Shown: in pieces, positions 1-64,000 of the stretch
How positions within the stretch are numbered: the first letter of the stretch is position 1
Layout: each line of letters opens with the position of its first letter
Virus record (IMG/VR): IMGVR_UViG_3300045988_170943
Location: 256,001-320,000 of that record
Length of the DNA stretch: 64,000 bases
From: a virus
Reading direction: 5' to 3' (one strand)
Translations under genes and position numbers: made by a program
The notes under the pieces: model-generated
What the model was told of the DNA's origin: nothing
Database searches by the model: none
The model's input: the letters and a program-made list of their open reading frames with translations, nothing else

Positions 1-1704
1 ATTGACAGCATCCCCACAACGATCCTGTTCGTTCTACTGATCACCATGGCTCTGCTCATGTACCGTAAGGAGATCATTGACCTACTAGGCAAGGTCAACG
101 CCAAGGGCGAGGAACTGTCTTCCCAAATGAGTGACAGGCTGGGCCGCACCATGCGGGGTGCCGGTAGTGGCACCACACGTATGCTCAGTGCCGGTGTCGG
201 TGGCGCGGTCGGCGCGAAGATGGCCGGTGGCACCATGAGGTCCGGGTTCGCTGACGCAGCCAAACGTGACCTTAAGCGCAGCGGCGGCTTCGTCGGTAAC
301 GTCGCCCGCCAGGTTGACCGCGAGAATGTCGCCAACCGCGGCAAACTCAAGAACAAGGAGCAGGAGGCCAAACAGCAGGAGCGTGACGCCCAGCAGGCAG
401 CGAAGAACTGGCAGGACGCATCCAGAGGCGCCTCTAAGGAGATCGCCAGCCAGGAGTCCAGGAAGGCCGCCGACCAGAAGACCATTGACCGGCTGGAGGG
501 CGAGAAGTTCAAGAAGACCCACGCGACCTTCATCGCCCGTAAGGACCTGATCACGGACGCTGAACTACACCTGGAGCGTGTCAACAACAACCCCGAAGCC
601 ACCATGGATGAGCGGGAGTCCGCAATCTCCAGGCTTGAGCAGGTGCGCGCATTCGTCGAGTTCGAGAACCTTGGTGAGCGTATCGGTGCTTTGGAGAAGC
701 AAAAGTCAGCCATCAGTGACCCAGCGCAACGTAAAGCCTTCCAGAACCGTATCAACGGACACTACACCAGGATGGACGAGTTGCAAGAACCGTTCGAGGA
801 GATCGACGGCCGCACCTTTGATGACCTCAGGGGTCAGGTTGCTTTCAACGCTGACAAGGTGGCCGCCAGAGCCAAGTTCGGGTCTGAGCAGCAAGCCGCT
901 CTTGACAAGGCATACCGCGACCAGGATGAAGCGGACCGCAACATTGACAAGGCGACGGCTGAGCGCGACCTCTACGATCAGCGCGCAGCAGGAGCACACC
1001 GGGAGGCCGCTGAAGCCGGACAACGTGGACGCATGTACGGTGAGATCAACGACCGTAACGCTGCGGCAGCGGGTAGGACCGTCACAGCCAAGAGTATTGA
1101 CAAAGCCGACAAGAAGGTAGCGAAAGCACGCCAGGAGAAAGGCTTCGTATCCAAGGAAACCGCTAAGAAGGACCTGAAGGCTGAACACAAGCGTAACCGT
1201 GGTAAAACCAAGGTGACCGCAGACGTCCATATCTATGGTGATCAGGACACTGATTTGGACGGCAAGGGGGCGAAGTACGATGCTGACGGCACCGCCATAG
1301 CACCACCAAAACGCTCACGCAGACGACGTGCTGACAGCAGCAGGAGGCCATCATCACCGTCTCCCGTAACTCCGCCAAGCGCATCAACACCCGAACTGCC
1401 CGCACTGGATCTACCGCCTATCAGTGGCACAAGTGAGTCAGAATCACAGTCCAAGCCAACGACTGAGGACAAGCCTACCAGGAGGCAGAGGAGCGTGCCG
1501 TCGCCGGACAGGATGCCTGACTCACCCCCTACCCCGAAGCCAACACCGGAGAGGAAACCAGAACCCACCCCGACGCCACCGCCTGCACCCCAGGAAAAGC
1601 CAGTAGCAGACACAAGAACCAGAGAAGAGGTGAACCCACCAATGCGTAGACCACGGCCACCACGACCGAATCTTCCCCCAAGAAAGCCTCGTGACACCAA
1701 GTAA
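1..1704 (+). CDS. 5'-partial hypothetical protein: N-terminal hydrophobic segment, long K/E/R/A-rich coiled-coil region, Pro/Thr/Ser-rich basic C-terminal tail
   Basis: The ORF track starts it at 46, but the same frame is open back to nt 1 (IDSIPTTILFVLLIT precedes the Met), so the gene begins upstream of the window. The composition is charged and coiled-coil; the tail is PTPKPTPERKPEPTPTPPPAP. Confidence 0.45.
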   Translation: MDSIPTTILFVLLITMALLMYRKEIIDLLGKVNAKGEELSSQMSDRLGRTMRGAGSGTTRMLSAGVGGAVGAKMAGGTMRSGFADAAKRDLKRSGGFVGNVARQVDRENVANRGKLKNKEQEAKQQERDAQQAAKNWQDASRGASKEIASQESRKAADQKTIDRLEGEKFKKTHATFIARKDLITDAELHLERVNNNPEATMDERESAISRLEQVRAFVEFENLGERIGALEKQKSAISDPAQRKAFQNRINGHYTRMDELQEPFEEIDGRTFDDLRGQVAFNADKVAARAKFGSEQQAALDKAYRDQDEADRNIDKATAERDLYDQRAAGAHREAAEAGQRGRMYGEINDRNAAAAGRTVTAKSIDKADKKVAKARQEKGFVSKETAKKDLKAEHKRNRGKTKVTADVHIYGDQDTDLDGKGAKYDADGTAIAPPKRSRRRRADSSRRPSSPSPVTPPSASTPELPALDLPPISGTSESESQSKPTTEDKPTRRQRSVPSPDRMPDSPPTPKPTPERKPEPTPTPPPAPQEKPVADTRTREEVNPPMRRPRPPRPNLPPRKPRDTK

Positions 1705-1760
1705 ACCAAGACCCCTATTAGCAGCCGGAGAATAGCCGCCACCAGGAGAAGAAACCCAAC

Positions 1761-3665
1761 ATGAGTGACAACTGGGAAGCCCCCAAGACTACCGACCCGG
1801 AGTTCGGCTATGAGCCTGATGCTGTAGCCGACAGCGAGGTGTACCCAGATGAAACTCAGTATCTCGACGGTGGCGGCATCCCCGGCCGCGATATGCCCGA
1901 GATCCGTTCTGCCCCAACGTTCATGCCTGGGACGAGCCGCAACATTGACCCCAGGGCTGAGCAGAACTCCGATCTAGAAAAGGGCAGTGACTCACCAAAG
2001 GGAGACGGTAGCCACCCCAGCAACCCAGGGGGCCAGAGGGGCAAGTCACACGGAAACAACGGAGACCCCAACAGCAAGCCCCCAGTAGGTACCCCTAGTG
2101 ATGGAGGTTCCAGCGAAGGAGACGGAGAAGGTAAAAGCGGCGACGACCCTAAGTCAGGTGGAGGCAAGGGCCGCGGTGGCGTCAAAGGTGTAGCCGGGAA
2201 CCTCGCAAAGAGTGCAGCCGCCCATGCCGTACCAGAGAAGGCGGCAGAGACAGCGGCAAAAGCCGCAGAGACCGCGCGGCGTGTCCAGTCGGCAGTCCAC
2301 ACAGTCGTCCACTCTGTGCAGGGCGCTGTCGCTGTCGTCATAAACCCTGTCTCATGGATCATCCTAGCGGCAGCCGTCATTATCACCGTGGTGTCTCTCG
2401 CCGTGACCTCATCCATGATGGTGATCGGCCGTAATGAGAACGCAGACGGGTGCTTCGGTATCGGCGGTGACGCGAAAAGCGGGCGAGGCATCCTTGGTAT
2501 CGGGTCAGCGATTCAGGGCGCCAAAGACAAGGTAGACCAGGAGGGAGAGGACTGGACCCAGCGAGGCAACCAGGCTGGTTCGTGGCTCATGTCCCAGAAG
2601 TGGGAATTCCTGGGAGGTAAGGGCATGTCCCGCGAGCAGGCCGCTGGCATCCTCGGTAACTTCATCCAGGAGTCCGGCCTGAAGTATGCTCGCGCCGAGA
2701 TGAAAGGCCCAAACGCTGACGGCTCACTAGACCATATGTCAAATGAGCAGGCGGATGCCTTCACAAAGGACAACGCACCGGCTGGTCTTGGTCTGGCTCA
2801 GTGGACGTGGAACCCTGGGCGCGCTAAGACCCTCCTGGACCTGGCGAAGAGCATGGGGAAAAACTGGTACGATGCCGAGGTCCAGTTGACCATGATCAAG
2901 AACGAGGTTGACTCCTCTTACGGGCAGCGTCTCCTCGCGGCAGGCTTCAACGACCAGGGTAAGTCTGAGAAGGATCTGGCACTCATCTTCCACGATGTCT
3001 ATGAGGGCTCCGCAGACGGTGCTCAGGGACTCAAGGAGCGTCAGGACAGTGCCAGCGAGTTCCTGTCAAAGTTCACCGGGTCCGCGGGTCTCCCCAGCAG
3101 TGACGGCGGCGGGTCATGCAGCCGCGGTGGAGGTACAGCAGTAGGTGGAGGCAAAGACAACATCGTCAAGTTCGCCATCTCTATCGCCTACCCCACCAAA
3201 GAGGAGTCGAAGTGCCCTGAGCCTCGTGGATACTCCTGTGCCCCTCAGGCGTACAAAGACGCTAAGCACAAGATGGAAGGGCAGACTGGTGCTGACCCAC
3301 TGGACCTGTGGGCCGACTGCGGTCGTTTCGCCGCCACCGTCGTAAAAAACACGGTTGACCCAGAGTTCCCGTGGGGGCCGACAGGAGAACAGTACAGGTA
3401 CGCCTCATCATCCCCGAAGTGGCAGGCCTATAATGACTACAGCCAGCGCCAGCCAGGCGACATCTTCATCACGAAACCCGAGTATGTGGGCCACATCTTC
3501 GTGTACCTGGGACAAGTTGATGGCGTGGAGAAGATCGCTGAGGCTTCCATGGAAGAGCGCGTGGGTGGCGTTGGAGAGTTCTACCTGAACTCCTCCCTCA
3601 CTGAGGACTACGCAGTAGGTGGTGCACACAGGCAATTCACGGGATTCCACTACGTGGGCAGCTAA
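1761..3665 (+). CDS. Membrane-anchored bifunctional peptidoglycan hydrolase (lysozyme-like glycosidase region plus C-terminal CHAP/NlpC-P60-like Cys-His peptidase), VirB1/PrgK-like
   Basis: A single TM segment (VINPVSWIILAAAVIITVVSLAV) follows an acidic, Gly-rich N-terminus. The central region (GNFIQESGLKY ... LGLAQWTWNPGR) resembles phage/T4SS lysozyme-like domains. The C-terminus carries Cys and His in CHAP-like context (DLWADCGRFAA ... YVGHIFVYLG). Confidence 0.55.
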   Translation: MSDNWEAPKTTDPEFGYEPDAVADSEVYPDETQYLDGGGIPGRDMPEIRSAPTFMPGTSRNIDPRAEQNSDLEKGSDSPKGDGSHPSNPGGQRGKSHGNNGDPNSKPPVGTPSDGGSSEGDGEGKSGDDPKSGGGKGRGGVKGVAGNLAKSAAAHAVPEKAAETAAKAAETARRVQSAVHTVVHSVQGAVAVVINPVSWIILAAAVIITVVSLAVTSSMMVIGRNENADGCFGIGGDAKSGRGILGIGSAIQGAKDKVDQEGEDWTQRGNQAGSWLMSQKWEFLGGKGMSREQAAGILGNFIQESGLKYARAEMKGPNADGSLDHMSNEQADAFTKDNAPAGLGLAQWTWNPGRAKTLLDLAKSMGKNWYDAEVQLTMIKNEVDSSYGQRLLAAGFNDQGKSEKDLALIFHDVYEGSADGAQGLKERQDSASEFLSKFTGSAGLPSSDGGGSCSRGGGTAVGGGKDNIVKFAISIAYPTKEESKCPEPRGYSCAPQAYKDAKHKMEGQTGADPLDLWADCGRFAATVVKNTVDPEFPWGPTGEQYRYASSSPKWQAYNDYSQRQPGDIFITKPEYVGHIFVYLGQVDGVEKIAEASMEERVGGVGEFYLNSSLTEDYAVGGAHRQFTGFHYVGS

Positions 3666-3754
3666 CAGGGGCAGGATATACTGTCGAAAAAGAAGCCACG
3701 CCTTTGTGGGACAGTTGCACGCACTTTTTACGAACGACCCAGGGGGATTCACGC

Positions 3755-4654
3755 ATGACAACAGAGAACTACGACACTGAGGGTGAGAACTTCGAGGAAC
3801 CTACCCTGAAAGAACGCATTGTCCGAACTGGGCTCATGGTTGTGCTCGTGGTGGCTGTAGCGGCAGGTGCTGTTACTGCCGTGAACTGGTGGGGAGCCCG
3901 AAATGAGCAGAACAAGGAGCCCGCATCGGTTGCCATGTCGGACACAGAAAAGACGAAGGTTGCCACAACTGCTGAACTGTTCCTCAGCAAGACCGGAAAC
4001 TTCGGGGTCGTCTCCGGTACCGTGGACCAACAGGGTGACAATGTGATCACTGTCGCTAACACTGTCTCCACCGCTCCAGAGAAATACCCGTCACTGTTCA
4101 TCACCAGGCAGATGGCGTACCGTAACGCCCTCCCCGTCATCGCTAAGGGGGCTCCCGCCTACATGGATGGTGTGTCAACCAGCAAGTGGTCCAACGAAAC
4201 CGACCTAGGGTACCTGATGGGATTCGAGTTGAAGGACTCTAAGGTGCAGCCCGCAGACAAGGCGTCATACATCACCTTGAATGGTAAAAGGGTCCTGGCG
4301 GTGAAAGCCAAGGGTACGTTCTCCAGCCGTGTCACTATGCGCGTCCAGAACGGCAATGATGTCGATTGGGATGGAACCTACACGGTACAGTCCAGGGGCT
4401 TCTCCGACCAGACGGTGGAGTTCACTCTCGTTCAGGTTGATGGCACATGGCTGGTGTTCTCCGTGGACAAGTTAGAGCACCCATTCCTGCTGGCTAACTG
4501 GAAGAACCCCATCTACGCGGGGTACGACTTGAAGGACTACAAGGTGACCTCCAGTATTCAGACGACTCGCGGCCTGGGCGGTAAAGGACAGCCGAACCAG
4601 AACTCGTCCCTGACACCAGAGCAGGCACAGAACATCACCCCACAGGGGAAGTAA
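3755..4654 (+). CDS. Hypothetical membrane-anchored (type II) protein
   Basis: Long ORF. ATG at 3755 is preceded by a GGGGGA RBS; the track start at 3704 is less likely. One TM helix (LMVVLVVAVAAGAVTAV) is followed by a ~250-aa exported domain. Confidence 0.4.
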   Translation: MTTENYDTEGENFEEPTLKERIVRTGLMVVLVVAVAAGAVTAVNWWGARNEQNKEPASVAMSDTEKTKVATTAELFLSKTGNFGVVSGTVDQQGDNVITVANTVSTAPEKYPSLFITRQMAYRNALPVIAKGAPAYMDGVSTSKWSNETDLGYLMGFELKDSKVQPADKASYITLNGKRVLAVKAKGTFSSRVTMRVQNGNDVDWDGTYTVQSRGFSDQTVEFTLVQVDGTWLVFSVDKLEHPFLLANWKNPIYAGYDLKDYKVTSSIQTTRGLGGKGQPNQNSSLTPEQAQNITPQGK

Positions 4655-4718
4655 CCAGAAAACCTATACCCCCACACACAGGGCACCACCATTCAGAAGC
4701 AACGAAGAGAGTTCACTT

Positions 4719-5540
4719 ATGGGGAAGCACGCGGCAGAGAACACACCACAACTACCAGCAGATGAGGGAAACTGGGAGCGGGATATGGACTCTGTGCTCG
4801 CCAGCATCGACACTCACACGGGCGGAGCAACCAACAGCGACACGAACCCCCAAGACGCCACACCCCCTGTAAACGCCAACGGCAGTGCCCCCAAGAAGAC
4901 AGCCCCGCCACTGGAGTTGGAAGCGGAAACCGCAATAGGCACTGATACTGCTACTGCCTATGAGGTTGATCTTGGCGACACGAGAAGCCACAGTGACGAG
5001 ACTGTAGCCAACCTGGGTGAAGAAGACGATACTGGCGACCTCAGCAACGACACCGCCAGTGTCGTGGATACCTACTTTGATGACGATGAGGAGTTCCTGG
5101 CTGGTGACGACAAGGTGCTAACCGAGGAGCAGGACATGGCCCTGTTCAAACAGTCCGGGAAGGTCGTCAAGTGGCGGGTGGAGAACCTGTACCGACCTAA
5201 CGGCGATTTTCGACGCGGCAACCTCGTTCGAGCCAACCCTCCAGTGCTCATCATCTCCGATAGTGATGGCAACGAGGTCGAGTTCATGGTCACCAGGGAG
5301 TTCGCCGCATCCATGAGGTCCGTGATGGGTGATGCTGAGATCGCACACATGTCCAGCACTCTGCCGCCGTGGGCCACACCAACCAGGAGACCGGGCGTAG
5401 CCAATACGTCAACATGGAAGGAGCGATGCGCCGAGTGGGCGAAGGAGCACAAGGTGAAGGCCACAGGATTGATCCTGCTGGCTATCTACATGCTGGCATC
5501 AATGGTCTCCCCATTTATCATGCGATATTTCGGCAGTTAA
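4719..5540 (+). CDS. Hypothetical acidic protein with C-terminal transmembrane helix
   Basis: 273-aa ORF with an acidic N-terminal half and a C-terminal hydrophobic helix (TGLILLAIYMLASMVSPFIM). Confidence 0.4.
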   Translation: MGKHAAENTPQLPADEGNWERDMDSVLASIDTHTGGATNSDTNPQDATPPVNANGSAPKKTAPPLELEAETAIGTDTATAYEVDLGDTRSHSDETVANLGEEDDTGDLSNDTASVVDTYFDDDEEFLAGDDKVLTEEQDMALFKQSGKVVKWRVENLYRPNGDFRRGNLVRANPPVLIISDSDGNEVEFMVTREFAASMRSVMGDAEIAHMSSTLPPWATPTRRPGVANTSTWKERCAEWAKEHKVKATGLILLAIYMLASMVSPFIMRYFGS

Positions 5541-5571
5541 CAGTCAGGTTCAATCACTGAAGGAATCTAGC

Positions 5572-6120
5572 ATGGCGGCTGGTCCAGGTGGCAAGAAAGT
5601 TCGCGTATCGACAGGTGTTCTCACCAGGATGCTGTCAACGGCCGCAGTCAGGTGGGTGGGCGTCGCGCTCGCTATCCTTGGCGTCGTCTACCTGTGTTTC
5701 GCAGCCACTCTGCTGCGCGTCGTTCTACTTCGGGACAACAGTGTCGTACCAGTGAAGAACCTGACGTTCGAGGGCGGTATAGCGCCAGTCGGGTCGAAGG
5801 TGCTCGTCGATCCTGGCAACCATGATGGTGGTATCCTTGACCACTTGAAACAGTCTCTCACCCCATCCAGGCAGGCCAGTGTCGTCACCATTGAGGCTGG
5901 CCCCATCGGCAGACTCCAGTACGCTGACCCGATCCTCACCGTCGATGGGAAGGCTGTGACAAAAATCCACAGCGAAGGCTACAGGGCTATCACTGAGGGC
6001 AGGGACGGCAAGTTCCTCAGAGATGAGTACGTAGTCCGCTGTGTTCAGGGTAACTGCACCCCAGGCGAGGTGTTCATCGTCCCGAAGGAGAAAGTCATCG
6101 GCCAGACCCTCCAGCAATAA
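5572..6120 (+). CDS. Hypothetical membrane-anchored protein
   Basis: 182-aa ORF with an N-terminal TM (VGVALAILGVVYLCFAATLL). An RBS-like GAAGGAAT lies upstream. Confidence 0.4.
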   Translation: MAAGPGGKKVRVSTGVLTRMLSTAAVRWVGVALAILGVVYLCFAATLLRVVLLRDNSVVPVKNLTFEGGIAPVGSKVLVDPGNHDGGILDHLKQSLTPSRQASVVTIEAGPIGRLQYADPILTVDGKAVTKIHSEGYRAITEGRDGKFLRDEYVVRCVQGNCTPGEVFIVPKEKVIGQTLQQ

Positions 6121-6227
6121 TAGTGCACCCCGACCGGCCAACAACTCACGGAAGAGCCAGTCAGCCAAGGGGACACTCGCCCAACACTATCTAGAGTGAA
6201 AGACACGAAAAGGGGACATGAGGACAC

Positions 6228-6512
6228 ATGCCAGGACCATTCGACGAGTTAGTCGGTAGCCGGATGACAGACCCGGATGAACGACAGGCCAAGGAGATCA
6301 CCCGCAGCAAGACAAGAAAAGGGCGACTTCACCATAGAGGGTCCGTGTCCGAGCAGTCCGCGGGCCTGTACCTTGGTGCACTCAGGATGATCCTGTTTGT
6401 TCTAGTGGTTGCGGCTGCGCTCTGGGCAGCGAAGTACGGGATCGAGACCTATATAGGGCACCCGATCAACTGGCACGATGCAACACTAGCACCCGTCCCT
6501 GTGGTGAGATAA
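6228..6512 (+). CDS. Small membrane protein
   Basis: 94 aa with a central TM (MILFVLVVAAALWAA). There is an AAAAGGGGA RBS upstream and a TAATG stop/start overlap with the next gene. Confidence 0.35.
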   Translation: MPGPFDELVGSRMTDPDERQAKEITRSKTRKGRLHHRGSVSEQSAGLYLGALRMILFVLVVAAALWAAKYGIETYIGHPINWHDATLAPVPVVR

Positions 6513-6976
6513 TGGGACACACAGGCATCCAGCAGATCGTAGCCCTCAGAGAAGGCCAAGGAGATAAGACAGCCCTCAGTCGGGAACTCGTGCACATACT
6601 AAAATGCGGGGATCCGCGAGCGCTCAACTCACTGGCCGTATCGATCCTCAGGGGGGTCCAGCCCAAGTGCTTACCTGTGGGTGACATCCTGAAAACCCCC
6701 ATGAGTACGATCCGTTGCACCACATACCAGGCCCCAGGTGGTGACACGTATGTCGCTCTCGGAGTCGCATACCTACAGGACTACAGGAACCCCGACCCCA
6801 CCTTGGACACAACCATCCTGGACGCTACTGTGAACTATGTGCAGTCAGTGAACCTCGACCAGGTGATCACCGACATCACCATCAACAACCACCAGCACAC
6901 CATCCACCCCGCCACACCCAACATCACAGACAGTGGCAGTACGCGCGGGCGACAGCGAGAGGAGGGCACCAAGTGA
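6512..6976 (+). CDS. Hypothetical protein
   Basis: 154-aa ORF with a TAATG overlap to the upstream gene and a GTGA overlap to the downstream gene, indicating an operon. Confidence 0.35.
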   Translation: MGHTGIQQIVALREGQGDKTALSRELVHILKCGDPRALNSLAVSILRGVQPKCLPVGDILKTPMSTIRCTTYQAPGGDTYVALGVAYLQDYRNPDPTLDTTILDATVNYVQSVNLDQVITDITINNHQHTIHPATPNITDSGSTRGRQREEGTK

Positions 6977-7380
6977 GCGACCCCACGGTCAAAAATGGAC
7001 TGCCCTACACGGTGCCAGACGACCGGCCCTCCTACCCCATCCCCAAGGCAGACATAACTGGGTTCACCGTCCCCGCTGAACTTATCGCCCGCCAGTACAC
7101 CCCCAAGGACCGCGACACCATAATCGCAATCCACCACGAGTTAACCAAGCATGGTGCAGTCGATAACCACTCCACATTCACCGACCCTGCCGCCAGCACC
7201 ATCAGCCTCGTCAACAAAATCCTGGACGAAGCGAACCAGGCGGCACAATTCGAGAGAGACATACACCCTCACCTGTACGACCAAGACACCATGAGCGTCC
7301 TTGACTCAATGGACAAGGATTACCAGGGCGACGAGAACCCCCTCATAGACGGCCTTGACGAACACGGCAACCCATGGTGA
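6973..7380 (+). CDS. Hypothetical protein
   Basis: 135-aa ORF starting at a GTG that overlaps the upstream stop. Confidence 0.35.
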   Translation: MSDPTVKNGLPYTVPDDRPSYPIPKADITGFTVPAELIARQYTPKDRDTIIAIHHELTKHGAVDNHSTFTDPAASTISLVNKILDEANQAAQFERDIHPHLYDQDTMSVLDSMDKDYQGDENPLIDGLDEHGNPW

Positions 7381-11676: not shown

Positions 11677-11797
11677 TATCCACACAATCACCAGGGGCAC
11701 CTACAACGAGTTCACAGGCAACTTGGGGTGCCCCTGTGTACGTGTCGGTAACATGAACATGCCCCCGCACATACTATAGGTGTTTAGAGAACCCCGC

Positions 11798-29239: not shown

Positions 29240-29240
29240 G

Positions 29241-52502: not shown

Positions 52503-52762
52503 AATCTCCGCCCGTTTAAAGGCGTGCGCACAAACTGTGTACACCATGCTGGGCCGTAACCAGGGTAGGCTCTTTCCTTTCTTCCTCCCTGTGGTTACGG
52601 CCCAGCCCCTTCCTATTCCGCTACGAGAGCCTGGGGCGGGTGCTGCGACCTCCTGGACTGTAGGTGCGATGTGGGCCGGGTAGAATGGTGCTGCCCACCG
52701 CAAGTCAGCATTACCATCCGCCGCATAGGGGTGGGGTGCGAGAAGGAACAGAGGACATCCAC

Positions 52763-54226: not shown

Positions 54227-54268
54227 AATCAGCAAAAGAGCAAGGATACAGGGGAGAAAGGGCGAACT

Positions 54269-54670
54269 ATGGGGACTACCTCAGCCAGACGGCACCCACT
54301 CATGCTGGGGGAGCAGCCACTACTCGCACTCGATGAGGACGCAGACAACAGTGGCTCTGCTGACGACACCTACCTGACAGAGGAACAGCAGGCTACCCGG
54401 TTCATGAGCCGCTGGCAGGAGAAGGTGGACCCACTGATCAGGTACAAGGACTACTTTGAATCCTCAGCCAAGACCAGTGGTCACATCTTTAAGGAGATCC
54501 GACGATTCTACCTGCAACTCGTCGTCAACGGCAACTGGTCAGACGGAAAGTTCGTCGCTGTCGTCGGCAAGATCATGTCGGACAACCAGCACACGGTCAA
54601 CACTCCAACCCTGGATGTTGTAGGCAGGCAGTACGACCGTGAACAGATCAAGACACAAAGACGTCGCTGA
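54269..54670 (+). CDS. Hypothetical protein
   Basis: 133-aa ORF between dnaB and the loader-like gene. Confidence 0.3.
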   Translation: MGTTSARRHPLMLGEQPLLALDEDADNSGSADDTYLTEEQQATRFMSRWQEKVDPLIRYKDYFESSAKTSGHIFKEIRRFYLQLVVNGNWSDGKFVAVVGKIMSDNQHTVNTPTLDVVGRQYDREQIKTQRRR

Positions 54671-54697
54671 GCAAAGCAACAGCCCAAGAAAGGGGGT

Positions 54698-55728: not shown

Positions 55729-58083
55729 ATGTTCGAGACCTACCACAGGATGAAGAACACAGTCGATGTGTCGTTCGACGACTTCTTCACTGACTCCCCG
55801 GTCCACGTCACCAAAGGTGAACCTAAACCCAGGCGAACCCTGTCAATGGTCGCAAAGAACCTGGGTGTCTTCATGCTCGTCGCGGCCCTGTGCGGGACCC
55901 TCACCTCAGTGTGGCCGATCCTCGCGCTCAGCCAGGGGGTACAAGCCGCAGAACCAATCGCTGAGTACTGGAAGTCCCTGCCAGAGAACCTGGAAGACAT
56001 CGAGATCGGGCAGAAGAACACGCTACTCGACATCAACGGCACCCCATACGCTGAAGTATGGTCAGAGAACAGAACCACCCTCACCTCACTGGACCAGGTG
56101 AGCGACTACGCAAAAAAGGGCTTGATCGCAACCGAAGACAAGGACTTCTACAAGCACAAGGGCTTCAGCCTGAAAGGTACAGCGCGAGCAGCAATGTCCA
56201 GTTCCGGTGGAGGATCCGGCATCACCCAACAGTTAGTGAAAAACCTCCAGTTCTTCAACCTAGCCGGTCGAGACAAGAAAGACCAGGCCGTCGAAGCCAC
56301 CATCGGCCGCAAGGTACGCGAACTCAAACTGGCACTAGGCTACGAGAAGAAGCACACCAAGAACGAAATCCTGCTCACCTATTTCAACACCGTAGCGTTC
56401 GGCGGCCCCAACACGTACAGCATCGAGACCGCCGCCCAATACTACTTCGGGAAGCCAGCCAAGGACCTCGACCTGGCAGAGTCAGCAGTCCTCGTCGGAA
56501 GCGTCCAGAACCCCAGTCGCTTCAACCTAGACAACACCGAGGACAGCAAGACCAACTACAAGGCCCGCCAAAAAGATGTGCTCGACAGGATGGTCACAGA
56601 GGGTTACATCACCCAAGCCGACGCAGATAAGGCATATGGTGAGGAACTGAACCTCGTCTACAAGTCAACCTCCAACGGCAACTGCACCTCCAGCAGATAC
56701 CCCTACTACTGCGAGTATGTCATGGGCTACCTGTCCAAGTCACCGAAACTAGGGGAGACACAGGAAGAGCGAGACGCCATCCTCCGCAAGGGCGGCCTCC
56801 AGATACACACCTACCTAGACCCCAACGCTATGGGGATCGTGGACGCGCAACTCAAACAGGACTACGGAACAGACAACCACCTGGCCGCCCCTACCGCTGT
56901 CGTCCAACCAGGCACAGGAGGCGTACTCGCAATGGGATCCAACCGCGACTACGGGACCGGCCCAGGACAGACCACCGTCAACCTGCCCTTACATGCCACT
57001 GGCACCGGGTCCGTCTACAAAATGATCACACTCGCTGCCGCACTCCACGAAGGCTATACCGAGTCCGACCTAGCGTTCTCATCCCGATGCCCCCTCGTCG
57101 ATTCACGCTACGACACCCCAGACGGCGGAATCACCAACTCCGACTCCTGCTCCCTCCAGGGAGGTTACATGGACTACCGGACCGCCACAGCCCTATCCTC
57201 CAACACATGGTTCAGCGAGTTGGAGATCAAGGTCGGTGTCGAGAAGGTCAAGGAGTTCAGCGCCAGTGTCGGACTGTCCGCACCCGACAACATCACCTCC
57301 CGGTCCCTGGCCTACACGCTGGGTGTCACAGAGAACTCAGAGGTAGCGATGGCGGCAGCATTCGCAACATTCTCCAACGGCGGCATCTACTGCCCTCCCA
57401 GCCCCGTCTCTACGTTCTCTTACGCAGACGGCACCTCACCCGTTGTCCCAGACACCTATGACCCCAAGACAGACTCCTGCCGCCGTGTCCTGTCAGAGAA
57501 GGACAGCGGCGTGGTCCTCAAGGCTATGCGAGCCAACGTCAGCGGCGAGATCCCCAACGCTTTCGGGAACAAGTTCAACACATCAGGGTACACGACCGTA
57601 GCCAAGTCTGGCACCAACCAACTTTACAACTCCACGTGGGCTGTCTTGTCCGGCAACTTCAGTGTCTTCAGCAACATCTATGACCCTGTAGACTTCACTG
57701 AGGGCATGGACCCAACAACATACCGTGGCAGCCAGTACCGGTGGTGGGACCACGTGATCGGATACACGGGCCGCGACATCATGACCTCACTGCTGAACAC
57801 GGAAGGATACAAGCCCCTAAAGTTTGACAGCAGTGACGACACCATGACCGAGGTGTCCGTTGAGTCCAGGGACTTCGTAACCATCCCCTCCGTGATTGGT
57901 ATGGAACCGGCGCAAGCGATGGCGACGCTCAACTCGCTAGGGTTCCCTGCCCACCTGAGTAAGGAGAAGAAGCCAGCACCAGACGGTTACCAGTCTGGGG
58001 TGATTGTTGAGCAGAACCTCACCCCTGGCACCCAGTTGCCGGTCGGAAGTAAGAAGGAGATCATCATCTACCAGTCCAAGTAG
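55729..58083 (+). CDS. Class A penicillin-binding protein (GT51 transglycosylase + transpeptidase) with C-terminal PASTA domain, PonA2-like
   Basis: N-terminal TM helix. GT51 motifs ATEDKDFYKHKGFS and GGSGITQQLVKN. Transpeptidase motifs SVYK (SxxK), SSN (SxN) and KSG (KTG-like). A C-terminal ~70-aa PASTA fold (VTIPSVIGMEPAQAMATLNSLGF ... PGTQLPVGSKKEIIIYQSK). Confidence 0.7.
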   Translation: MFETYHRMKNTVDVSFDDFFTDSPVHVTKGEPKPRRTLSMVAKNLGVFMLVAALCGTLTSVWPILALSQGVQAAEPIAEYWKSLPENLEDIEIGQKNTLLDINGTPYAEVWSENRTTLTSLDQVSDYAKKGLIATEDKDFYKHKGFSLKGTARAAMSSSGGGSGITQQLVKNLQFFNLAGRDKKDQAVEATIGRKVRELKLALGYEKKHTKNEILLTYFNTVAFGGPNTYSIETAAQYYFGKPAKDLDLAESAVLVGSVQNPSRFNLDNTEDSKTNYKARQKDVLDRMVTEGYITQADADKAYGEELNLVYKSTSNGNCTSSRYPYYCEYVMGYLSKSPKLGETQEERDAILRKGGLQIHTYLDPNAMGIVDAQLKQDYGTDNHLAAPTAVVQPGTGGVLAMGSNRDYGTGPGQTTVNLPLHATGTGSVYKMITLAAALHEGYTESDLAFSSRCPLVDSRYDTPDGGITNSDSCSLQGGYMDYRTATALSSNTWFSELEIKVGVEKVKEFSASVGLSAPDNITSRSLAYTLGVTENSEVAMAAAFATFSNGGIYCPPSPVSTFSYADGTSPVVPDTYDPKTDSCRRVLSEKDSGVVLKAMRANVSGEIPNAFGNKFNTSGYTTVAKSGTNQLYNSTWAVLSGNFSVFSNIYDPVDFTEGMDPTTYRGSQYRWWDHVIGYTGRDIMTSLLNTEGYKPLKFDSSDDTMTEVSVESRDFVTIPSVIGMEPAQAMATLNSLGFPAHLSKEKKPAPDGYQSGVIVEQNLTPGTQLPVGSKKEIIIYQSK

Positions 58084-59109: not shown

Positions 59110-60270
59110 GTGAAGATAATCACAGAAGCCAGCAAGTTCACCAACACCATCAAATGGGTGGGACTCGGCCTTGACAGGAAGACCAACGGTACCCGGATCA
59201 TCCTCGACGCCCACAGTGACGGACGCTGCTACCTGTCTTACCACAGCGGCAGCGTGTACACATCCGCCCCACTAGAAGTCCTAACCATCGACTTCCAGGA
59301 CGAAAACCCCAGCCAGGACAGCGTACAGGTCACCTTAGACGGAGTGTTTCTTCAACGTCTCGCCCAAGGACTACCCAAGACCGGTGACATCACTCTGATC
59401 AGCAGGCGAGATGAACCCATGAAGGTCACCTCCAAGACCGGCCGGTTCACCGCCCCCACCTACAACGCCCGCAAAAAGCCCACCCCCAACACGTCATGCG
59501 TCGGAGAGGTAGACGCAGCAGAGTTCTTCAGCACCATATCCAGGGCCGCCAGAGTGTGTGACAACCGTGAGAACATTAGGCACAAGTTCGTCAACACCGT
59601 GGACCTATCACTCAACCCAGACACAGGCACCATCCGAGTATTCTCCTTCGACACCTATGTGATGGCCGAAACCACCATGAGATATACACCCACCAGTCAG
59701 CCACAAAACCAGGGGTACGTGCTCATACCATCCCAGTACGCCTCCATGATCCGCCCAGACAAGGACATGACCGGTGCTGTCAAGATACTGGAAGAAATAG
59801 GGGCCAACGGGAAGACCTACCGGGTAGGGTTCGAGTTCGACGACGGCAGGCGGATCCTCATGCCACTCAAGGACGTCCTCAGGTGCCCGAACGTTGACGC
59901 CATGGTAGAGGAATGCAGAAGAGGAGTACAAGCCCAGGTTATCGTCTCCACCGCGGCAGTCACCTCAGCAATAAAGAACGTGTCTGCCCTCACAGCCAAC
60001 AAAACCGACATCAGCGTCACCGGCCAGGACATCACCCTCACCGTATCCTGTGACGACAACAGCATCACAGTGCCACTCACAGGCGGATCATTCGAGACCC
60101 CCATAGAAGCCCTGTTCTCACGGGAAGTCATCACCAAGGGCCTGTCACCTATCACCACGAAAGATGTTCAGGTCAGTTTCAGTACGGACGCGGTGATCCT
60201 AGAACCTATCGGGGCCAGCATTGACACCACAGTCATTTTCACCATGAAACGGTACAGGGGAGAGTCATGA
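59110..60270 (+). CDS. DNA polymerase III beta sliding-clamp-like protein
   Basis: At 386 aa it has three-domain clamp length. The N-terminus MKIITEASKFTNTIKWVGLGLDRK ... IILDAHSDGRCYLS follows the DnaN pattern (MKF.i.r..L...l..v...i..k...piL.n.ll.a.dg.l.l). GTG start with a GAGGGAG RBS, located next to dnaB. Confidence 0.45.
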   Translation: MKIITEASKFTNTIKWVGLGLDRKTNGTRIILDAHSDGRCYLSYHSGSVYTSAPLEVLTIDFQDENPSQDSVQVTLDGVFLQRLAQGLPKTGDITLISRRDEPMKVTSKTGRFTAPTYNARKKPTPNTSCVGEVDAAEFFSTISRAARVCDNRENIRHKFVNTVDLSLNPDTGTIRVFSFDTYVMAETTMRYTPTSQPQNQGYVLIPSQYASMIRPDKDMTGAVKILEEIGANGKTYRVGFEFDDGRRILMPLKDVLRCPNVDAMVEECRRGVQAQVIVSTAAVTSAIKNVSALTANKTDISVTGQDITLTVSCDDNSITVPLTGGSFETPIEALFSREVITKGLSPITTKDVQVSFSTDAVILEPIGASIDTTVIFTMKRYRGES

Positions 60271-60962
60271 CCATACACTTGTTGACGGCAGTATTCGGTG
60301 GCGTATCATCACTGATCCTACTGTTCGTGACTATGCTGTACTCCCCGGGCTGGGTTGACAGGGGCCGCTGGCAATTAGTGAACGTGCTAGCCTTCGTGAC
60401 ATCTACTGTATCCAGCATCTTCACATCCGCGATGCTCCCTTCTGGTGATGTTACGCACTGGCTCACGGCCGTGGCCGGGGGCGTGTCAGTAGGAACAACC
60501 GTGTTCGTCACCACCCAGTGCGCCTACACGGACTTCACCTACCGGAAGGGTGACAGGTGGACTCTGCGTGCAGCGATAGCGATGAACGCTGCCACAGGTG
60601 GGGTCAGCCTGTTCCTGGAGCCCGCGCGCACTCAGGGTGAGCGGTGGTTGTTCGTCCTCCTGGTGCTTCTGTCACTGGTGCTGTTTCTGATCCCGTCCCT
60701 GGGTAAGTCGGATGCCCGCGCCACTCTCTTAAGTGTTCTGGCGACTTACCCGATGGTGGGGGTCCTGGGCGTCCAGTGGGGCCTGATCGTCCTGGCGCTG
60801 GTTCTGGGGGTGTATGGGGTGTCCTCATCGGTGCGGATGATGTGGGGCGTGAAAGGTACATTGAGGGGTGTATTCCGGGAGAAGATGAGTATTCCCATGG
60901 TCCCACTCATCACTGGATCATTCCTGATTGCAGAGATATGTGCAGCACTGGCCCAACAGTAG
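60267..60962 (+). CDS. Polytopic membrane protein (about 6 TM helices)
   Basis: 231 aa, highly hydrophobic, with an ATGA overlap to the upstream gene. Confidence 0.45.
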   Translation: MTIHLLTAVFGGVSSLILLFVTMLYSPGWVDRGRWQLVNVLAFVTSTVSSIFTSAMLPSGDVTHWLTAVAGGVSVGTTVFVTTQCAYTDFTYRKGDRWTLRAAIAMNAATGGVSLFLEPARTQGERWLFVLLVLLSLVLFLIPSLGKSDARATLLSVLATYPMVGVLGVQWGLIVLALVLGVYGVSSSVRMMWGVKGTLRGVFREKMSIPMVPLITGSFLIAEICAALAQQ

Positions 60963-61020
60963 GCGGCGATATTCTGGTGAGTTTAATCACGGCCCTCCCT
61001 GGCAGGAGAAAGGCACACAA

Positions 61021-61980
61021 ATGAGCGACATCCTGGATTCTATCGACGAACTTGATGACATTGAGGACGGCGACCTCGACGTTGAAGACACTCACCCTAT
61101 CTCCATTGTCACGGGAGTCAACGATGACGACGGTGATAACTACTTCAATGAAGATGATGATGAGGAGGAAGACCTCGCCGCCGAGATGAGCAGTATCCTG
61201 GACGCCGAGGACACTCAGGCATCAGAGATGGGGCAGGCTGAGGCACAGGAGATAACCAACGCCATCAAATCCGCCGCAACTGTCACCTATGCCCTACTCG
61301 CTAAGGCCCACGAAGGTAAGGCTCACCAGTCACTCGGGTACGACTCGTGGGGCGAGTACGTCAAGGCCGAGTTCGAGATGAGTCCACAACGCTCATACCA
61401 GTTGCTTGACCTGTCTAAGGCCGTCAAGATGATCGAGGCCGCCGCACCAGAAGGCACCCATATCAAACTCACAGAGGCCCAGGCCAGAGACCTGAAGCGT
61501 GAATTACCTCGAATCACTGAACGCATCCATGAAGAGACCACCGGCAAGACCCCGGAAGAGTCACGAGAGATCATCGACGACATCGTTCGTGAGGAACGTG
61601 AGGAGAAGATCCAGAAGCGAGCCGAGGACAAGGCCCACAAGAGCCGAGAACAGGAAATGGACGAGGCCCGCGACGAAGGCTATCGTGCAGGCCTGGAGTC
61701 CGCCGCTGACGCCATCCTAGAGGCCGACGCAGAAAGGCAGGCTGTCAACGAGCCAGACGGTGGGCTCATGGACGTGGAGGTCGAAGGGGACATCAATCAG
61801 GCTGGCCGTGCAGAATACATGAAATTAGTTCAGGCGCTCGTCATGAACAGCAATATGGGTGACCCACAGGACATTGTTGACGCCATCCCGGAGAACAACT
61901 TTGAGGACATCTACGACCGGGTGATAGACACTGCTGGCCTATGGAACCGTATCGCCAACTACATGGACCTCAGGCGTTAA
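61021..61980 (+). CDS. Acidic protein with putative ParB/KorB-type helix-turn-helix
   Basis: HQSLGYDSWGEYVKAEFEMSPQRSYQLLDLSKAVKM resembles ParB-family HTH segments. An extremely acidic N-terminus (DDDGDNYFNEDDDEEED) and a K/E/R-rich middle. ATG at 61021 with a GGAGAAAGG RBS; the track start at 60928 overlaps the upstream gene. Confidence 0.3.
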   Translation: MSDILDSIDELDDIEDGDLDVEDTHPISIVTGVNDDDGDNYFNEDDDEEEDLAAEMSSILDAEDTQASEMGQAEAQEITNAIKSAATVTYALLAKAHEGKAHQSLGYDSWGEYVKAEFEMSPQRSYQLLDLSKAVKMIEAAAPEGTHIKLTEAQARDLKRELPRITERIHEETTGKTPEESREIIDDIVREEREEKIQKRAEDKAHKSREQEMDEARDEGYRAGLESAADAILEADAERQAVNEPDGGLMDVEVEGDINQAGRAEYMKLVQALVMNSNMGDPQDIVDAIPENNFEDIYDRVIDTAGLWNRIANYMDLRR

Positions 61981-62087
61981 AGGAGCACCAGGTCCCTGAA
62001 ACAGCCCTCAGTGCGGTGGCAGCAAGCGTCGGTAATATGTGCTCAGGAAACACCCAACCACGAGCCCTATTCTGACGGAGAGCGCCA

Positions 62088-64000
62088 ATGGATAACACAA
62101 CACCCGAAACAGCGGACACGACCTCACAGGTTGGTCCGCTGTTTACTCTCATCCAGGACTCCTCCAACTACCAGCCGGTACCCCACGAAACTCTCCCAGA
62201 GGTCATCCAGGACACTATTGGTCGCACCATGGTAGCCTTGTGCAATTCTGAGCGCGGCCGGGTCATGGTCATTGGGGATGTCAGGTCAGGTAAGACATTT
62301 TTCGTCAATCATCTTGCTCAGGCCGTCAGCGACTTCACCACGGAGAAGGAATACGCGCCTGTCTACTTCATCCGGGTTAATGAGAAGGCGCTCCCGGCCA
62401 TGATGTCTGAGGACGGCACAGTCAGCATGAGCGCCATCATTGATCATGTATGTGACGCCCTGAAGTGTGCGGATAGCCAGGTGTGCGTCGTCACCGAAAA
62501 TCCGTCTATGGCGGCGGTCCTCCAGCAGAACACCACCGATGTGAAGGTCATCCTGGAGGCGGTCACTGACACCCTGTTTAGTGACGAGGCAGAGACCGCG
62601 AAGTCGTTCATGTCGTGGGATGCTGCTGACACAGCGGACATGTTACTGACCGCAAAGGAGACAAGCCTGCTGGTTAAGGCGGCGTTCTGGGGTAAGGCCA
62701 TCGACATGTACCCGACAGACGAGGTTGATGACACTATCATCGACAGCCTCATTCGTCGTATCGTGCGCAATGACGCCATGATCCAGAAGGACGGGAAGCG
62801 GAAAGTCCTGAACGTGCCGTTCGGGCAGTGGGGAGACATTCTCACTGACGTTACTGGCACCGTAGTCATGTCCAAATCGAAGCGCATCCGTGAAGCCGAT
62901 GGCAGTATCTCCGTCAAGGGGCTCACTAAGTACATCATCAAGCAGAACCGTGACATCCTTGAGAACAGTGAGGACGAGGGACTGGTCGCGCTCGCTGCAC
63001 TCTTTGGTGGCGACACCGACAGCAGTCAAGACGTGAAGAAGAGAAAGAAGCGCAAGCCACTGAAGTTCAACAGCCTCAAAAACCTCAAGACAGCCCTCTC
63101 TGGCAGCATCATCGGGCAGGAGAAGGCGCTGGATGCGATCACCCGACAGGTCACAGTACCCATGTCTGGAATGTCCCGCGAAGGTAAGCCGTTGCGGTCT
63201 CTCATGTTCTGTGGCCCTACCGGCACGGGGAAGACTGAGACCGCTAAGGTTATCGCCAAGCATCTCCTGAAGAAGGGGGAGATGAACCTTGTGCGCATCG
63301 ACATGTCTGAGTTCGCTGAGAAGCACGAGTACACGAAACTGCTCGGCGCACCCCCAGGGTACGTGGGGTATGAGACCGGCGGGGTCCTTACCCGTGCGGT
63401 GGCAGCGAACCCTCGGTCTGTAGTTCTCCTGGACGAGGTAGAGAAGGCCCACCCGGACATCTGGAACCAGTTCCTCCAGATCCTTGACGCCGGGCGCATG
63501 ACAGACAGTAACGGGCAGGTCGTAGACTTCACACAGACAATAATCATCATGACCTCCAACCTTGGTGCCGCCGAGATGTCCCGCACCAGAGCAGGCTTCG
63601 TCACCATGGACTCGGGTCAGGCATACACGGATCGGGAGCGGAACGCCACTAACGCAGTTATGAGGTCTGTGGAGAAGACCATGCTCCCGGAACTCATCAA
63701 CCGGATAGACGAGATCATCGTGTTCAGCGAAATCCGACCTGAGGCAGCCCGCGAGATCGCCGTGAAGGAGATCAAGAGAATCCGGGACACCCACAGCACT
63801 AGCGTCCGCACCATTATGGACGCACCCCATGATATTGTCGATGAAATCTTAAAAAAGTCGAACATCAGCAAGTATGGGGTCCGCGAGATTCAGAGAACCG
63901 TTGAGAAGATGATCGTGAACCCACTCGCTACGGCTATCGCAACCCACCCTGACGGCAACACATTCACGTTTGAGATGTCTCAGGACGGTCAGGTCATTGT
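62088..64000 (+). CDS. ClpA/ClpB-like AAA+ ATPase, 3'-partial, with atypical or degenerate first nucleotide-binding domain
   Basis: Not in the ORF track because it has no stop inside the window. The frame is open from 62088 to the window end. A canonical Clp D2 is present: IIGQEKALDAITRQV ... SLMFCGPTGTGKTETAKVIA ... GAPPGYVGYETGGVLTRAV ... VVLLDEVEKAHPDIWNQFLQILDAGRMTD ... IIIMTSNLG. The N-terminal P-loop GDVRSGKTFFVNHL is atypical. Confidence 0.65.
   Translation, partial: MDNTTPETADTTSQVGPLFTLIQDSSNYQPVPHETLPEVIQDTIGRTMVALCNSERGRVMVIGDVRSGKTFFVNHLAQAVSDFTTEKEYAPVYFIRVNEKALPAMMSEDGTVSMSAIIDHVCDALKCADSQVCVVTENPSMAAVLQQNTTDVKVILEAVTDTLFSDEAETAKSFMSWDAADTADMLLTAKETSLLVKAAFWGKAIDMYPTDEVDDTIIDSLIRRIVRNDAMIQKDGKRKVLNVPFGQWGDILTDVTGTVVMSKSKRIREADGSISVKGLTKYIIKQNRDILENSEDEGLVALAALFGGDTDSSQDVKKRKKRKPLKFNSLKNLKTALSGSIIGQEKALDAITRQVTVPMSGMSREGKPLRSLMFCGPTGTGKTETAKVIAKHLLKKGEMNLVRIDMSEFAEKHEYTKLLGAPPGYVGYETGGVLTRAVAANPRSVVLLDEVEKAHPDIWNQFLQILDAGRMTDSNGQVVDFTQTIIIMTSNLGAAEMSRTRAGFVTMDSGQAYTDRERNATNAVMRSVEKTMLPELINRIDEIIVFSEIRPEAAREIAVKEIKRIRDTHSTSVRTIMDAPHDIVDEILKKSNISKYGVREIQRTVEKMIVNPLATAIATHPDGNTFTFEMSQDGQVI

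Follow-up and report, generated by a model that had tools for sequence, protein, structure and literature searches.

The stretch of DNA considered here (64,000 bp, positions 256,001 to 320,000 of the IMG/VR record IMGVR_UViG_3300045988_170943; this whole stretch is called the window below) is part of a large element from human oral metagenomes which carries genes of a conjugation apparatus together with a set of replication genes of its own. By exact look-ups of its proteins, the window was located at bases ~184,834-248,833 of a 418,686-bp human oral metagenome contig (ENA ERZ27262911, k119_16908), and near-identical copies were found in more than 20 other assemblies as well as in IMG/VR contigs of 394,300 bp, and a JGI contig of 408,666 bp carries it too. 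One of the records is labelled human.oral.metagenome (PRJEB6997), and identifiers of the form 7000000xxx in IMG are taken here to denote samples of the Human Microbiome Project. An exact 26-mer of the ENA contig remained without match in IMG/VR, and the lineage listed there at '99%' differs at the DNA level.

All 54 genes of the window (greedy ORF map, re-counted with the starts of public gene calls) are situated on the + strand, with 93% of the sequence coding, and exactly seven junctions are 4-nt stop/start overlaps (at 6973, 9092, 10900, 15401, 26065, 41766, and 60267). The co-directional, operon-like arrangement described in an earlier account made from the letters of the window (the original prediction) is thus correct except for the gene number, which was given as 55. 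Each of the long ORFs on the - strand overlaps a better-supported gene on the + strand; that at 62643-63830 (395 aa) was rejected, as it lies inside the 646-aa AAA/ClpB-like gene which leaves the window, and ORF 46-1704 was rejected as a whole gene, as it is only the C-terminus of a 1143-aa protein starting upstream. Exact look-ups of these two ORFs were fruitless because neither is a real complete gene. The GC content is 0.54-0.59, and the coding strand exhibits a strong excess of A over T (AT skew up to +0.36) and of C over G.

The sequences were compared with Pfam, PHROGs, PDB, PADLOC, Rfam, GTDB (185,579 species genomes), PLSDB, and IMG/VR, and scanned for transmembrane (TM) segments. More than 60% of the genes belong to no family. 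The first 25 kb of the window had no DNA match by megablast in the phage (50,697 records) and plasmid collections, no tRNA was detected in the window or in 13 loci, and no Rfam RNA family in the window or across 129 kb. Counted from the first base of the window and with the flanks included, the parts read so far extend from about -48 to +81 kb and from +105 to +135 kb, i.e., ~159 kb or ~40% of the element; the flanks were surveyed by Pfam scans, outside of which several smaller flank ORFs lay.

Concerning conjugation, window and flanks together contain a type IV secretion system (T4SS) set consisting of VirB4 (as two genes), a VirD4-type coupling protein, a TcpC/VirB8-like protein, giant VirB6-like proteins, a CwlT-like hydrolase, and an FtsK/TcpA-like translocase. 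The coupling protein and the TcpC-domain protein are encoded ~11-13 kb upstream of the window, and the N-terminal half of VirB4 ~7-8 kb upstream. The coupling protein possesses a Walker A motif and N-terminal TM segments and matches TrwB_AAD_bind (30.8 bits, cutoff 20.5), TraG-D_C (29.2 bits, cutoff 22), and TraD (E 4e-18); it has no match in the 50,697 phage records and at most 24% identity to any PLSDB plasmid. The TcpC domain of the VirB8-like protein reaches 46 bits (cutoff 27). The VirB4 N-half aligns to residues 19-413 (E 3e-30) of an 847-aa ATPase of a Nocardiopsis plasmid, the gene of which adjoins genes for 'conjugal transfer protein', and the VirB4 ATPase half far downstream of the window aligns to residues 448-813 (E 5e-57) of the same protein. 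As the two halves align to one plasmid VirB4, a VirB4 is present, encoded by two genes ~143 kb apart; further support comes from NF052333 (TcpF, E 5e-8) and PDB 4ag5 (E 7e-4). Homologues of the ATPase half occur in 865 plasmid records, mostly Gram-positive. At the break between the halves no intein signature is visible, and the N-half has nearly the same size (455 aa) in a lineage of only 52% identity.

Within the window, the two giant membrane proteins are paralogous (24% identity over 485 aa, E 2e-28), and each consists of an N-terminal TM segment, a large external domain, and 6-7 TM segments. The VirB6 topology claimed for them in the original prediction was recovered. Their matches to the CD3337/EF1877 model NF046089 (E 2e-7 and 6e-10) are significant and that to TrbL (E 4.6e-4) is weak, all of them below the curated cutoffs; by their sequence they are candidates for VirB6/TcpH-like channel proteins. 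A VirB1-like hydrolase with lysozyme and CHAP domains had also been proposed. Its lysozyme part stands, whereas an NlpC/CHAP peptidase at the C-terminus was supported neither by hidden Markov models (HMMs) nor by PDB, and the Cys...His motif was recognized by eye only. The architecture of this hydrolase presumably resembles that of CwlT of Gram-positive conjugative elements. The seven small proteins encoded downstream of it are, from their position, candidate accessory proteins of the mating channel.

The supposed VirB11-family ATPase is indeed a secretion ATPase, albeit closer to CpaF/TadA (PDB, E 5e-33) than to VirB11 (7e-20). A second CpaF-type ATPase (572 aa, CpaF E 2.6e-51) is found at ~+131 kb, a TadE match (PF07811) is likewise found in the flank, and TadB/C-like platform proteins can be assigned from sequence and position. 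The flanks hold a Tad-like cluster complete in its CpaF-type ATPase, TadB/C-like proteins, and TadE-like pseudopilins. The combination of T2SSE ATPase and TadE had been regarded as evidence against conjugation, a view that was dropped once the coupling protein, TcpC, and VirB4 turned up.

The replisome genes of the element comprise DnaB, a DnaC-like loader, DnaG, a fragment of the Pol III alpha subunit, clamp, clamp loader, single-stranded DNA-binding protein (SSB), and gyrase A and B; for recombination and repair there are RecA, RadA, RecG, and an SMC/Rad50-like ATPase, and for nucleotide supply class I and class III ribonucleotide reductases (RNRs), a ThyX-like protein, and a deoxynucleoside monophosphate (dNMP) kinase. 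HU, SSB, DnaC-like loader, clamp, DnaB, and RecA, all named in the original prediction, were confirmed by Pfam and PHROGs, as was the 646-aa Clp-like ATPase by its AAA, AAA_2, and AAA_5 matches. The divergence ascribed to the replication and recombination genes was found as well: RecA shows at most 47% identity to anything in the phage collection and has no close relative among the 185,579 species genomes of GTDB. At least one sigma factor is the element's own. Of the two or three that had been suggested, the first is clear, the second, joined to the secretion ATPase gene by the 4-nt overlap at 15401, is weak (RpoD, E 0.0025), and for the third (9092-10366) a PDB sequence search gave no support of any kind. 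PDB sequence searches likewise found no match for the hydrolase and for a 711-aa protein.

Taken together, the window probably constitutes part of the conserved backbone of a giant (~400 kb), conjugative, plasmid-like extrachromosomal element of an oral Gram-positive host, analogous to the Inocles (Kiguchi et al. 2025, PMC12340149). This is favoured by the set of VirB4, VirD4, TcpC, VirB6-like, and CwlT-like proteins, by the lack of virion genes in 40% of the genome, by a coupling protein that is absent from phage records, and by a VirB4 half that is common in Gram-positive plasmids. The hybrid of phage-like and conjugation-like content that the original prediction had noted is borne out by the domain matches, and the class of the element, which it had left undecided, now tips towards a conjugative one because VirB4, VirD4, and TcpC/VirB8-like proteins, of which it had seen the first two to be missing from the window, are present outside of it. 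Such an element would replicate autonomously and redirect the RNA polymerase of its host by its own sigma factors; it would spread by conjugation, its hydrolase clearing a passage for the channel through the peptidoglycan, and its class A penicillin-binding protein (PBP), signal peptidases, and Rpf/NlpC-like enzymes would reshape or reinforce the wall of the host. That nearly all genes point the same way across more than 150 kb would correspond to co-orientation with replication in one replichore, as for the Inocles.

Several observations weigh against this interpretation. No relaxase family was found in the ~159 kb read (some flank ORFs were outside the scans) and no oriT in the same parts, a NikA/MbpA-like accessory protein is matched only faintly, and the VirB6-like and CD3337 matches stay below the curated cutoffs, as mentioned. 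All 27 loci of the family in IMG/VR are listed as viral. Since the parts read amount to ~159 of ~394-419 kb, virion genes could be situated in the rest, and much of the cargo is of a kind typical for jumbo phages, namely RNRs, ThyX-like protein, dNMP kinase, PhoH, NAD salvage, sigma factors, HNH endonucleases, many inteins, and fractured genes. Accordingly, the element might be a phage of huge (jumbo or mega) size or a phage-plasmid with a lytic or pseudolysogenic cycle, its secretion or pilus genes being accessory and its virion module lying in the 60% outside the parts read. The RNR with intein, PhoH, and HNH lie in the window and its near flanks, and ThyX-like protein, dNMP kinase, NAD salvage, NrdD, inteins, and fractured genes farther out; PHROGs matches exist for the sigma factor, the clamp, the loader, and the MoxR-like ATPase, and the many genes without family fit as well. 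On the other hand, the ~159 kb sampled (several flank ORFs unscanned) gave no match to families of capsid, portal, terminase, tail, or baseplate proteins, and within the window, as in the original prediction, no structural phage family was matched by Pfam or PHROGs among the proteins scanned. The coupling protein is without phage match, the VirB4 half has its 865 plasmid matches, and the megablast comparison with the phage records was without result. To our knowledge, a conserved set of VirB4, VirD4, TcpC, VirB6-like, and CwlT-like proteins is not known from phages. A phage or phage-plasmid is therefore unlikely; its listing in IMG/VR, its phage-like cargo, and the 60% of the genome still to be read keep this reading in view.

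Two further explanations place the genes in a cellular chromosome. One is that of an integrative and conjugative element (ICE) or genomic island in a bacterial chromosome, the long contigs being chromosome pieces. The T4SS genes are indeed of the ICE or conjugative-transposon type (TcpC, CD3337/EF1877, CwlT-like hydrolase), but the contigs of the lineage are consistently 363-419 kb long with no host-like flank in the parts read, no integrase was seen in these ~159 kb, the element has a near-complete replisome and gyrase of its own, and GTDB (185,579 species) lacks it apart from one 5-kb fragment, all of which makes an ICE very improbable. The other, which we regard as the least probable of all, is a chromosome stretch of an unrecognised ultra-small cell, e.g., of an episymbiont with a genome of 0.4-0.7 Mb. 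Single-copy 'cellular' genes (RecA, DnaB, SSB, RecG, RadA, gyrase, Pol III, sigma factor, HU, ClpB-like protein, PBP) and family contigs of 670-727 kb could be understood in this way; yet the ~159 kb (several flank ORFs unscanned) revealed no gene for a ribosomal protein, rRNA, tRNA, aminoacyl-tRNA synthetase, or core subunit of RNA polymerase, the family is absent from GTDB but for the same fragment, most genes are orphans, and a conjugation apparatus is present. The lack of ribosomal genes and tRNA in the parts read and the near-absence from GTDB also agree with the original prediction of a large mobile element; the element is mobile or extrachromosomal, not a part of the host chromosome.

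The conjugative plasmid-like element proposed here belongs to a diverse family. Homologues of its PBP form a very large set (44-99% identity), the best 120 of which come almost all from raw metagenome assemblies, with family contigs of up to 727,572 bp. This 727-kb relative (53% PBP identity) retains the order DUF2201, RecA, MoxR, DnaB, two further genes, PBP...ClpB-like...RecG, and DUF2201-RecA-MoxR follow each other also in IMG/VR relatives. The part of the window from 22.9 to 49.7 kb is syntenic in lineages of 37-43% GC, and the T4SS region in a lineage of 49% GC. GC content ranges from 37 to 62% among the IMG/VR loci and is 36% in an ENA relative. Between the lineages of 57% and 49% GC, identity amounts to 80% in PBP, 54% in RecA, 50% in DnaB, 32% in the clamp, and 28% in the loader; PBP is either under far stronger constraint or exchanged between lineages, and its high conservation compared with the replication proteins makes it a convenient marker by which to find the family. 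Strand skews are very strong and may be opposite within the family (AT +0.21 and GC -0.07 in the present lineage, AT -0.28 and GC +0.23 in a lineage of 61% GC), with AT skew across the family loci ranging from +0.23 to -0.28. In one family record of 437,576 bp (IMGVR_UViG_3300012642_000011), each locus is found twice in mirror positions with coordinates summing to ~437.5 kb; it is probably an inverted-duplicate assembly artefact of a ~219 kb sequence.

A scan of GTDB with family-specific PBP motifs yielded one member only, on a 5.2-kb contig binned to a metagenome-assembled genome of 'uncultured Actinomyces sp.'; other cellular PBPs found there show at most 39% identity, the best full-length relative (33%) being that of Luteococcus. 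The nearest named cellular homologues of NadE (49-55% identity) belong almost all to Actinomycetota, and PASTA and G5 domains give further hints at the host. Judging from these sequences, the host is most likely a Gram-positive, high-GC mouth bacterium, i.e., Actinomyces or a related actinomycete; as a further point against the interpretation preferred here, the link to Actinomyces itself rests on a single CONCOCT bin.

A peculiar organization was found in the gene of the FtsK/TcpA-like translocase. Its N-fragment ends in the middle of the Walker A motif, where GPTGGGK is followed directly by SLSIDTPVLVRVPKKPVA and the stop codon, these last 18 aa corresponding to intein block A. Nearly all of the 85 representative clusters of this fragment stop at the identical point, whereas a few contiguous relatives continue as an FtsK/SpoIIIE-type ATPase (GSGKSVLQR...IDLKRVEL...DEAxEL...ASQRP), and one relative carries a long N-intein with block B. 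The missing C-half, searched for with a profile of the C-terminal ATPase part, is situated ~78 kb downstream in the same lineage and 90-116 kb away in others. It opens with a 40-aa C-intein (blocks F and G, ending in SHN), after which the extein resumes with Ser+1 and VTQR. Between these, the free-standing gene in the window encodes ~210 aa with the Hint strands from N2 to block B (SGNHLFYVE) and an inserted domain; in three other lineages its orthologues (36-39% identity) follow the FtsK N-fragment at a distance of 0.9-8.4 kb. When the three pieces are joined computationally, their profile matches the DnaB and gp41-1 intein structures colinearly (E 1.3e-9), with the middle piece on residues 15-67 and the C piece on residues 108-137. 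For the middle piece, AlphaFold modelling from the single sequence gave a result too poor for use (pLDDT 39.8). The translocase gene thus appears to be interrupted at its P-loop, with the intein distributed over three genes (18 aa, ~210 aa, and 40 aa), an arrangement which is kept in at least four lineages with the extein halves 78-116 kb apart.

Table. Features of the window and of its flanks; coordinates headed by L refer to the flank or family locus of that name, all others to the window
Position	Strand	Feature	Match or remark
1..1704	+	C-terminal 552 aa of a 1143-aa coiled-coil, Pro-rich protein starting upstream (L013 6513-9944)	Weak match to CD3337/EF1877 'mobilome membrane protein' (NF046089, E 1.7e-4, below cutoff)
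1761..3665	+	Cell-wall hydrolase, one TM segment (residue ~197)	Phage_lysozyme2 muramidase PF18013, E 2e-27; PHROG endolysin
3704..7380	+	Seven small proteins (one predicted TM segment in each of five)	No Pfam or PHROGs match
7650..8600	+	Sigma-70-family factor	Sigma70_r2, E 4e-9; PHROG_351 sigma factor, E 1e-34
11780..14101	+	SMC/Rad50/SbcC-like coiled-coil ATPase	AAA_23, SMC_N, SbcC_Walker_B
14160..15404	+	Secretion ATPase, CpaF/TadA-VirB11 family	T2SSE, E 5e-27
15401..16498	+	Second sigma-like protein, weak	RpoD regions 2-3, E 0.0025; no Pfam match
16911..17201	+	HU-like DNA-binding protein	PHROG_379, E 4.5e-24
18578..26068	+	Two giant paralogous polytopic membrane proteins (1379 and 1053 aa)	
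26065..34329	+	Eight conserved proteins, six of them membrane or secreted; family backbone	No family
34481..34999	+	SSB	PF00436, E 1e-19
36187..37260	+	N-fragment of membrane-anchored FtsK/TcpA-like DNA translocase	
37297..38351	+	GrcA-like autonomous glycyl-radical protein and radical-SAM activase	Gly_radical, E 1e-17; Fer4_12, E 9e-43
41766..42509	+	Free-standing gene, middle piece of split intein	
42618..44268	+	Bax1-I/YccA-family membrane protein and HNH endonuclease	PF01027, E 6.5e-32; HNH, E 3e-15
44477..47338	+	953-aa protein, weak Eco57I-type methylase motif	PF07669, E 0.0014, below cutoff
47509..52502	+	DUF2201 metallopeptidase/VWA (47509-49758), RecA, MoxR-type AAA ATPase (51087-52502)	RecA, E 1e-82
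52664..55570	+	DnaB helicase, 133-aa protein, DnaC-like loader	DnaB_C, E 1e-59; loader PHROG_3277, E 3.6e-5
55729..58083	+	Class A PBP; family core gene	Transglycosylase, transpeptidase, PASTA
59110..60270	+	Sliding clamp, DnaN-like	PHROG_947 processivity factor, E 4e-14, full length
60267..61980	+	5-TM membrane protein (231 aa) and acidic 350-aa protein	Both family-conserved
62088..64000	+	AAA/ClpB-like ATPase (646 aa), running off the window end (L003 11822-13762)	AAA, AAA_2, AAA_5
Upstream flank 1		NAD salvage (NAPRTase, NadE, PncA, NrtR); dNMP kinase (- strand); GyrB; HATPase protein	
Upstream flank 2		ThyX-like protein, S26 signal peptidase, exonuclease, DnaG	
Upstream flank 3		817-aa VirD4-type coupling protein, 615-aa TcpC-domain protein, 105-aa TM protein	
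Upstream flank 4		451-aa VirB4 N-half (L013 181-1536), secreted GmrSD-type nuclease, faint NikA-like protein	
Upstream flank 5		Two TadE-like proteins, PIN-PhoH, then the 1143-aa protein entering the window	
Downstream flank 1		RecG, class I RNR (L003-L011, ~18.3-20.7 kb), second S26 peptidase, PIF1/RecD-like helicase	
Downstream flank 2		PASTA, G5-NlpC/P60, and G5-SLT proteins	
Downstream flank 3		Truncated DnaE (L147 845-2335), clamp loader, NrdD, FtsK C-fragment (L147 ~9880-10978)	FtsK C-fragment = IMGVR_UViG_3300008363_000089 ~72.4-73.4 kb
Downstream flank 4		Intein-bearing PD-(D/E)XK nuclease, then TnpB (L147 14113-14958), YdjM, and GyrA (all - strand)	TnpB with Cas12f1-like TNB domain
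Downstream flank 5		RadA, TadB-like protein, CpaF, TadC-like protein, VirB4-type ATPase (L187 19452-20657, ~+134 kb)	

Concerning the remaining genes of the window (Table), the SMC-like ATPase matches an LmuB-type SMC model over its full length (E 1.6e-37), but a Lamassu system was rejected, the similarity being that of SMC proteins in general and no Lamassu partner genes being seen. The eight conserved proteins downstream of the giants exhibit no PHROGs or Pfam family beyond weak coiled-coil matches, and orthologues of seven of them (~24-56% identity) recur in unchanged order in one or more of the lineages of 37-43% GC. Between the translocase N-fragment and the intein middle piece (37297-41187) are the GrcA-like protein, its activase, and two unknown proteins, the GrcA gene standing in the same frame as the ORF upstream with one stop codon between them. 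GrcA and activase look like lineage-specific cargo, because they were absent from every locus examined in the 37-43% GC lineages; the Bax1-I protein and the HNH endonuclease are kept in distant lineages. The 953-aa protein is specific to the present lineage, being absent from all other family loci examined, has no PADLOC match, and may be a cargo gene for restriction-modification or anti-restriction. PADLOC recognized no defence system in the Eco57I-like, DUF2201, MoxR, and GmrSD proteins. The DUF2201 and MoxR genes flank RecA, and this trio is kept across the whole family.

In the flanks, two S26 signal peptidase genes are present, one on each side of the window (L134 7874-8413 and L138 13243-13671), which, along with the PASTA, G5-NlpC/P60, and G5-SLT (Rpf-like) proteins encoded downstream, amount to a large repertoire of functions for the cell envelope. 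Depending on the sample, the large subunit of the class I RNR measures 726 aa or, with one or two inteins, 989-1140 aa, a size difference that is a presence/absence polymorphism of inteins within one lineage. DnaE (Pol III alpha) stops at 496 aa after FERFLSPGRG, and its 48-aa tail (AVCRVTYDDG...GDEVVLEG) resembles a short N-intein, for which no partner fragment was found. TnpB, YdjM, and GyrA on the - strand constitute one of the few breaks in the uniform gene direction; a replichore switch at the - strand genes around +112 to +125 kb was considered and rejected, as RadA and the following genes are on the + strand again.

Two propositions are advanced jointly and tentatively, as a reading that may hold but on which we would not insist: that the element represents an undescribed, ancient, and widespread superfamily of giant extrachromosomal elements of ~200 to more than 700 kb, each having in its backbone its own replisome, a conjugation apparatus, and a class A PBP, and that a natural three-gene intein assembles its FtsK-like translocase. 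Within this joint reading, the superfamily (GC 36-62%) may have been mis-filed as viruses, with the Inocles perhaps only its low-GC branch. If so, Inocle-type elements would be a branch of a broad and deep family that exists also in high-GC oral bacteria and in other habitats, and catalogues labelling the family as phage would distort virome statistics and hide a major vehicle of oral gene flow. The combination of private replisome, sigma factors, wall-building PBP, and conjugation machine is unusual for a plasmid and invites the question to what extent the host cell is taken over. The three-gene intein, if real, would be the first case in nature of an intein spread over three genes; if active, it would show that an essential ATPase motif can be rebuilt from three separately encoded pieces and would provide a natural precedent for a protein-engineering tool so far built by hand.

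Among known conjugation systems, the closest are presumably the Gram-positive T4SS of the Tcp, ICEBs1, and Tn916 kind. The element shares with these a TcpC/VirB8-like protein, a TcpF-related VirB4, a VirD4-type coupling protein, VirB6/TcpH-like CD3337/EF1877 proteins, a CwlT-type membrane-anchored muramidase, and a TcpA-resembling FtsK-like translocase. In contrast to them, all components are very divergent, VirB4 is present as two genes, the FtsK-like gene is split by an intein, the genes are dispersed over more than 150 kb instead of forming a single operon, CpaF/Tad-like genes are added, and a relaxase was not found in the ~159 kb. With jumbo and huge phages the element has in common its size, parts of the replisome, and the cargo named above, as well as inteins, homing endonucleases, a high fraction of orphans, and the listing in IMG/VR, whereas it differs by the lack of any virion or packaging gene in ~40% of the genome and by a backbone made up of the conjugation set and class A PBP.

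The organization of the element is most similar to that described for Inocles (PMC12340149), i.e., circular giant plasmid-like extrachromosomal elements of oral Streptococcus (293-395 kb) with VirB4, VirD4, a conserved class A PBP, an S26 signal peptidase, gyrase, Pol III, a RecD-like helicase, and an RpoS-like sigma factor, in which ORF orientation switches at origin and terminus. Inocles, of which 29 genomes are published, proved to be depleted in virome fractions as compared with cell pellets and disappear during liquid culture. Equally to these, the present element lives in the human mouth, is of similar size (the lineage contigs of 363-419 kb being compatible), is missing from isolate genomes and reference databases, and consists mostly of orphan genes; VirB4 and VirD4 are present in its flanks, class A PBP is conserved across its family, an S26 peptidase, gyrase, Pol III, a RecD-like helicase, an exonuclease, and an extra sigma factor are found, and its genes are co-oriented over long stretches. 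There are, however, some differences: GC content is 56-57% (0.54-0.59 within the window) as against 24-32%, the likely host is an actinomycete and not Streptococcus, no sortase was seen in the parts read, and insertion sequence elements are rare (one TnpB). The single-copy Inocle marker InoC (~454 aa, with an N-terminal replication-relaxation domain, PF13814; PMC12340149) had no match by this domain among the proteins scanned or pre-annotated in the ~159 kb. Judged by described features and not by sequence, the element would thus appear to work like an Inocle and is at most a putative member of that family. In the literature on huge or jumbo phages with PBPs and on Actinomyces megaplasmids, nothing relevant was met with beyond the Inocle paper (PMC12340149).

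Concerning the intein, the nearest natural case is that of the 'fractured genes' with split inteins (Dassa et al. 2009, PMC2677866), in which likewise a split intein interrupts an enzyme gene within a conserved motif and a free-standing gene is situated between or near the halves; in the present element, however, this free-standing gene is the middle of the Hint domain itself and not only an endonuclease. According to a 2023 preprint (bioRxiv 10.1101/2023.01.30.526203), natural inteins are encoded by one gene or two genes only, whereas three-piece inteins are engineered. The fragments described here correspond to those of the engineered inteins in dividing one Hint fold into an N-terminal, a middle, and a C-terminal part, but they are natural, are kept in at least four deep lineages, and have their C-fragment ~78-116 kb away.

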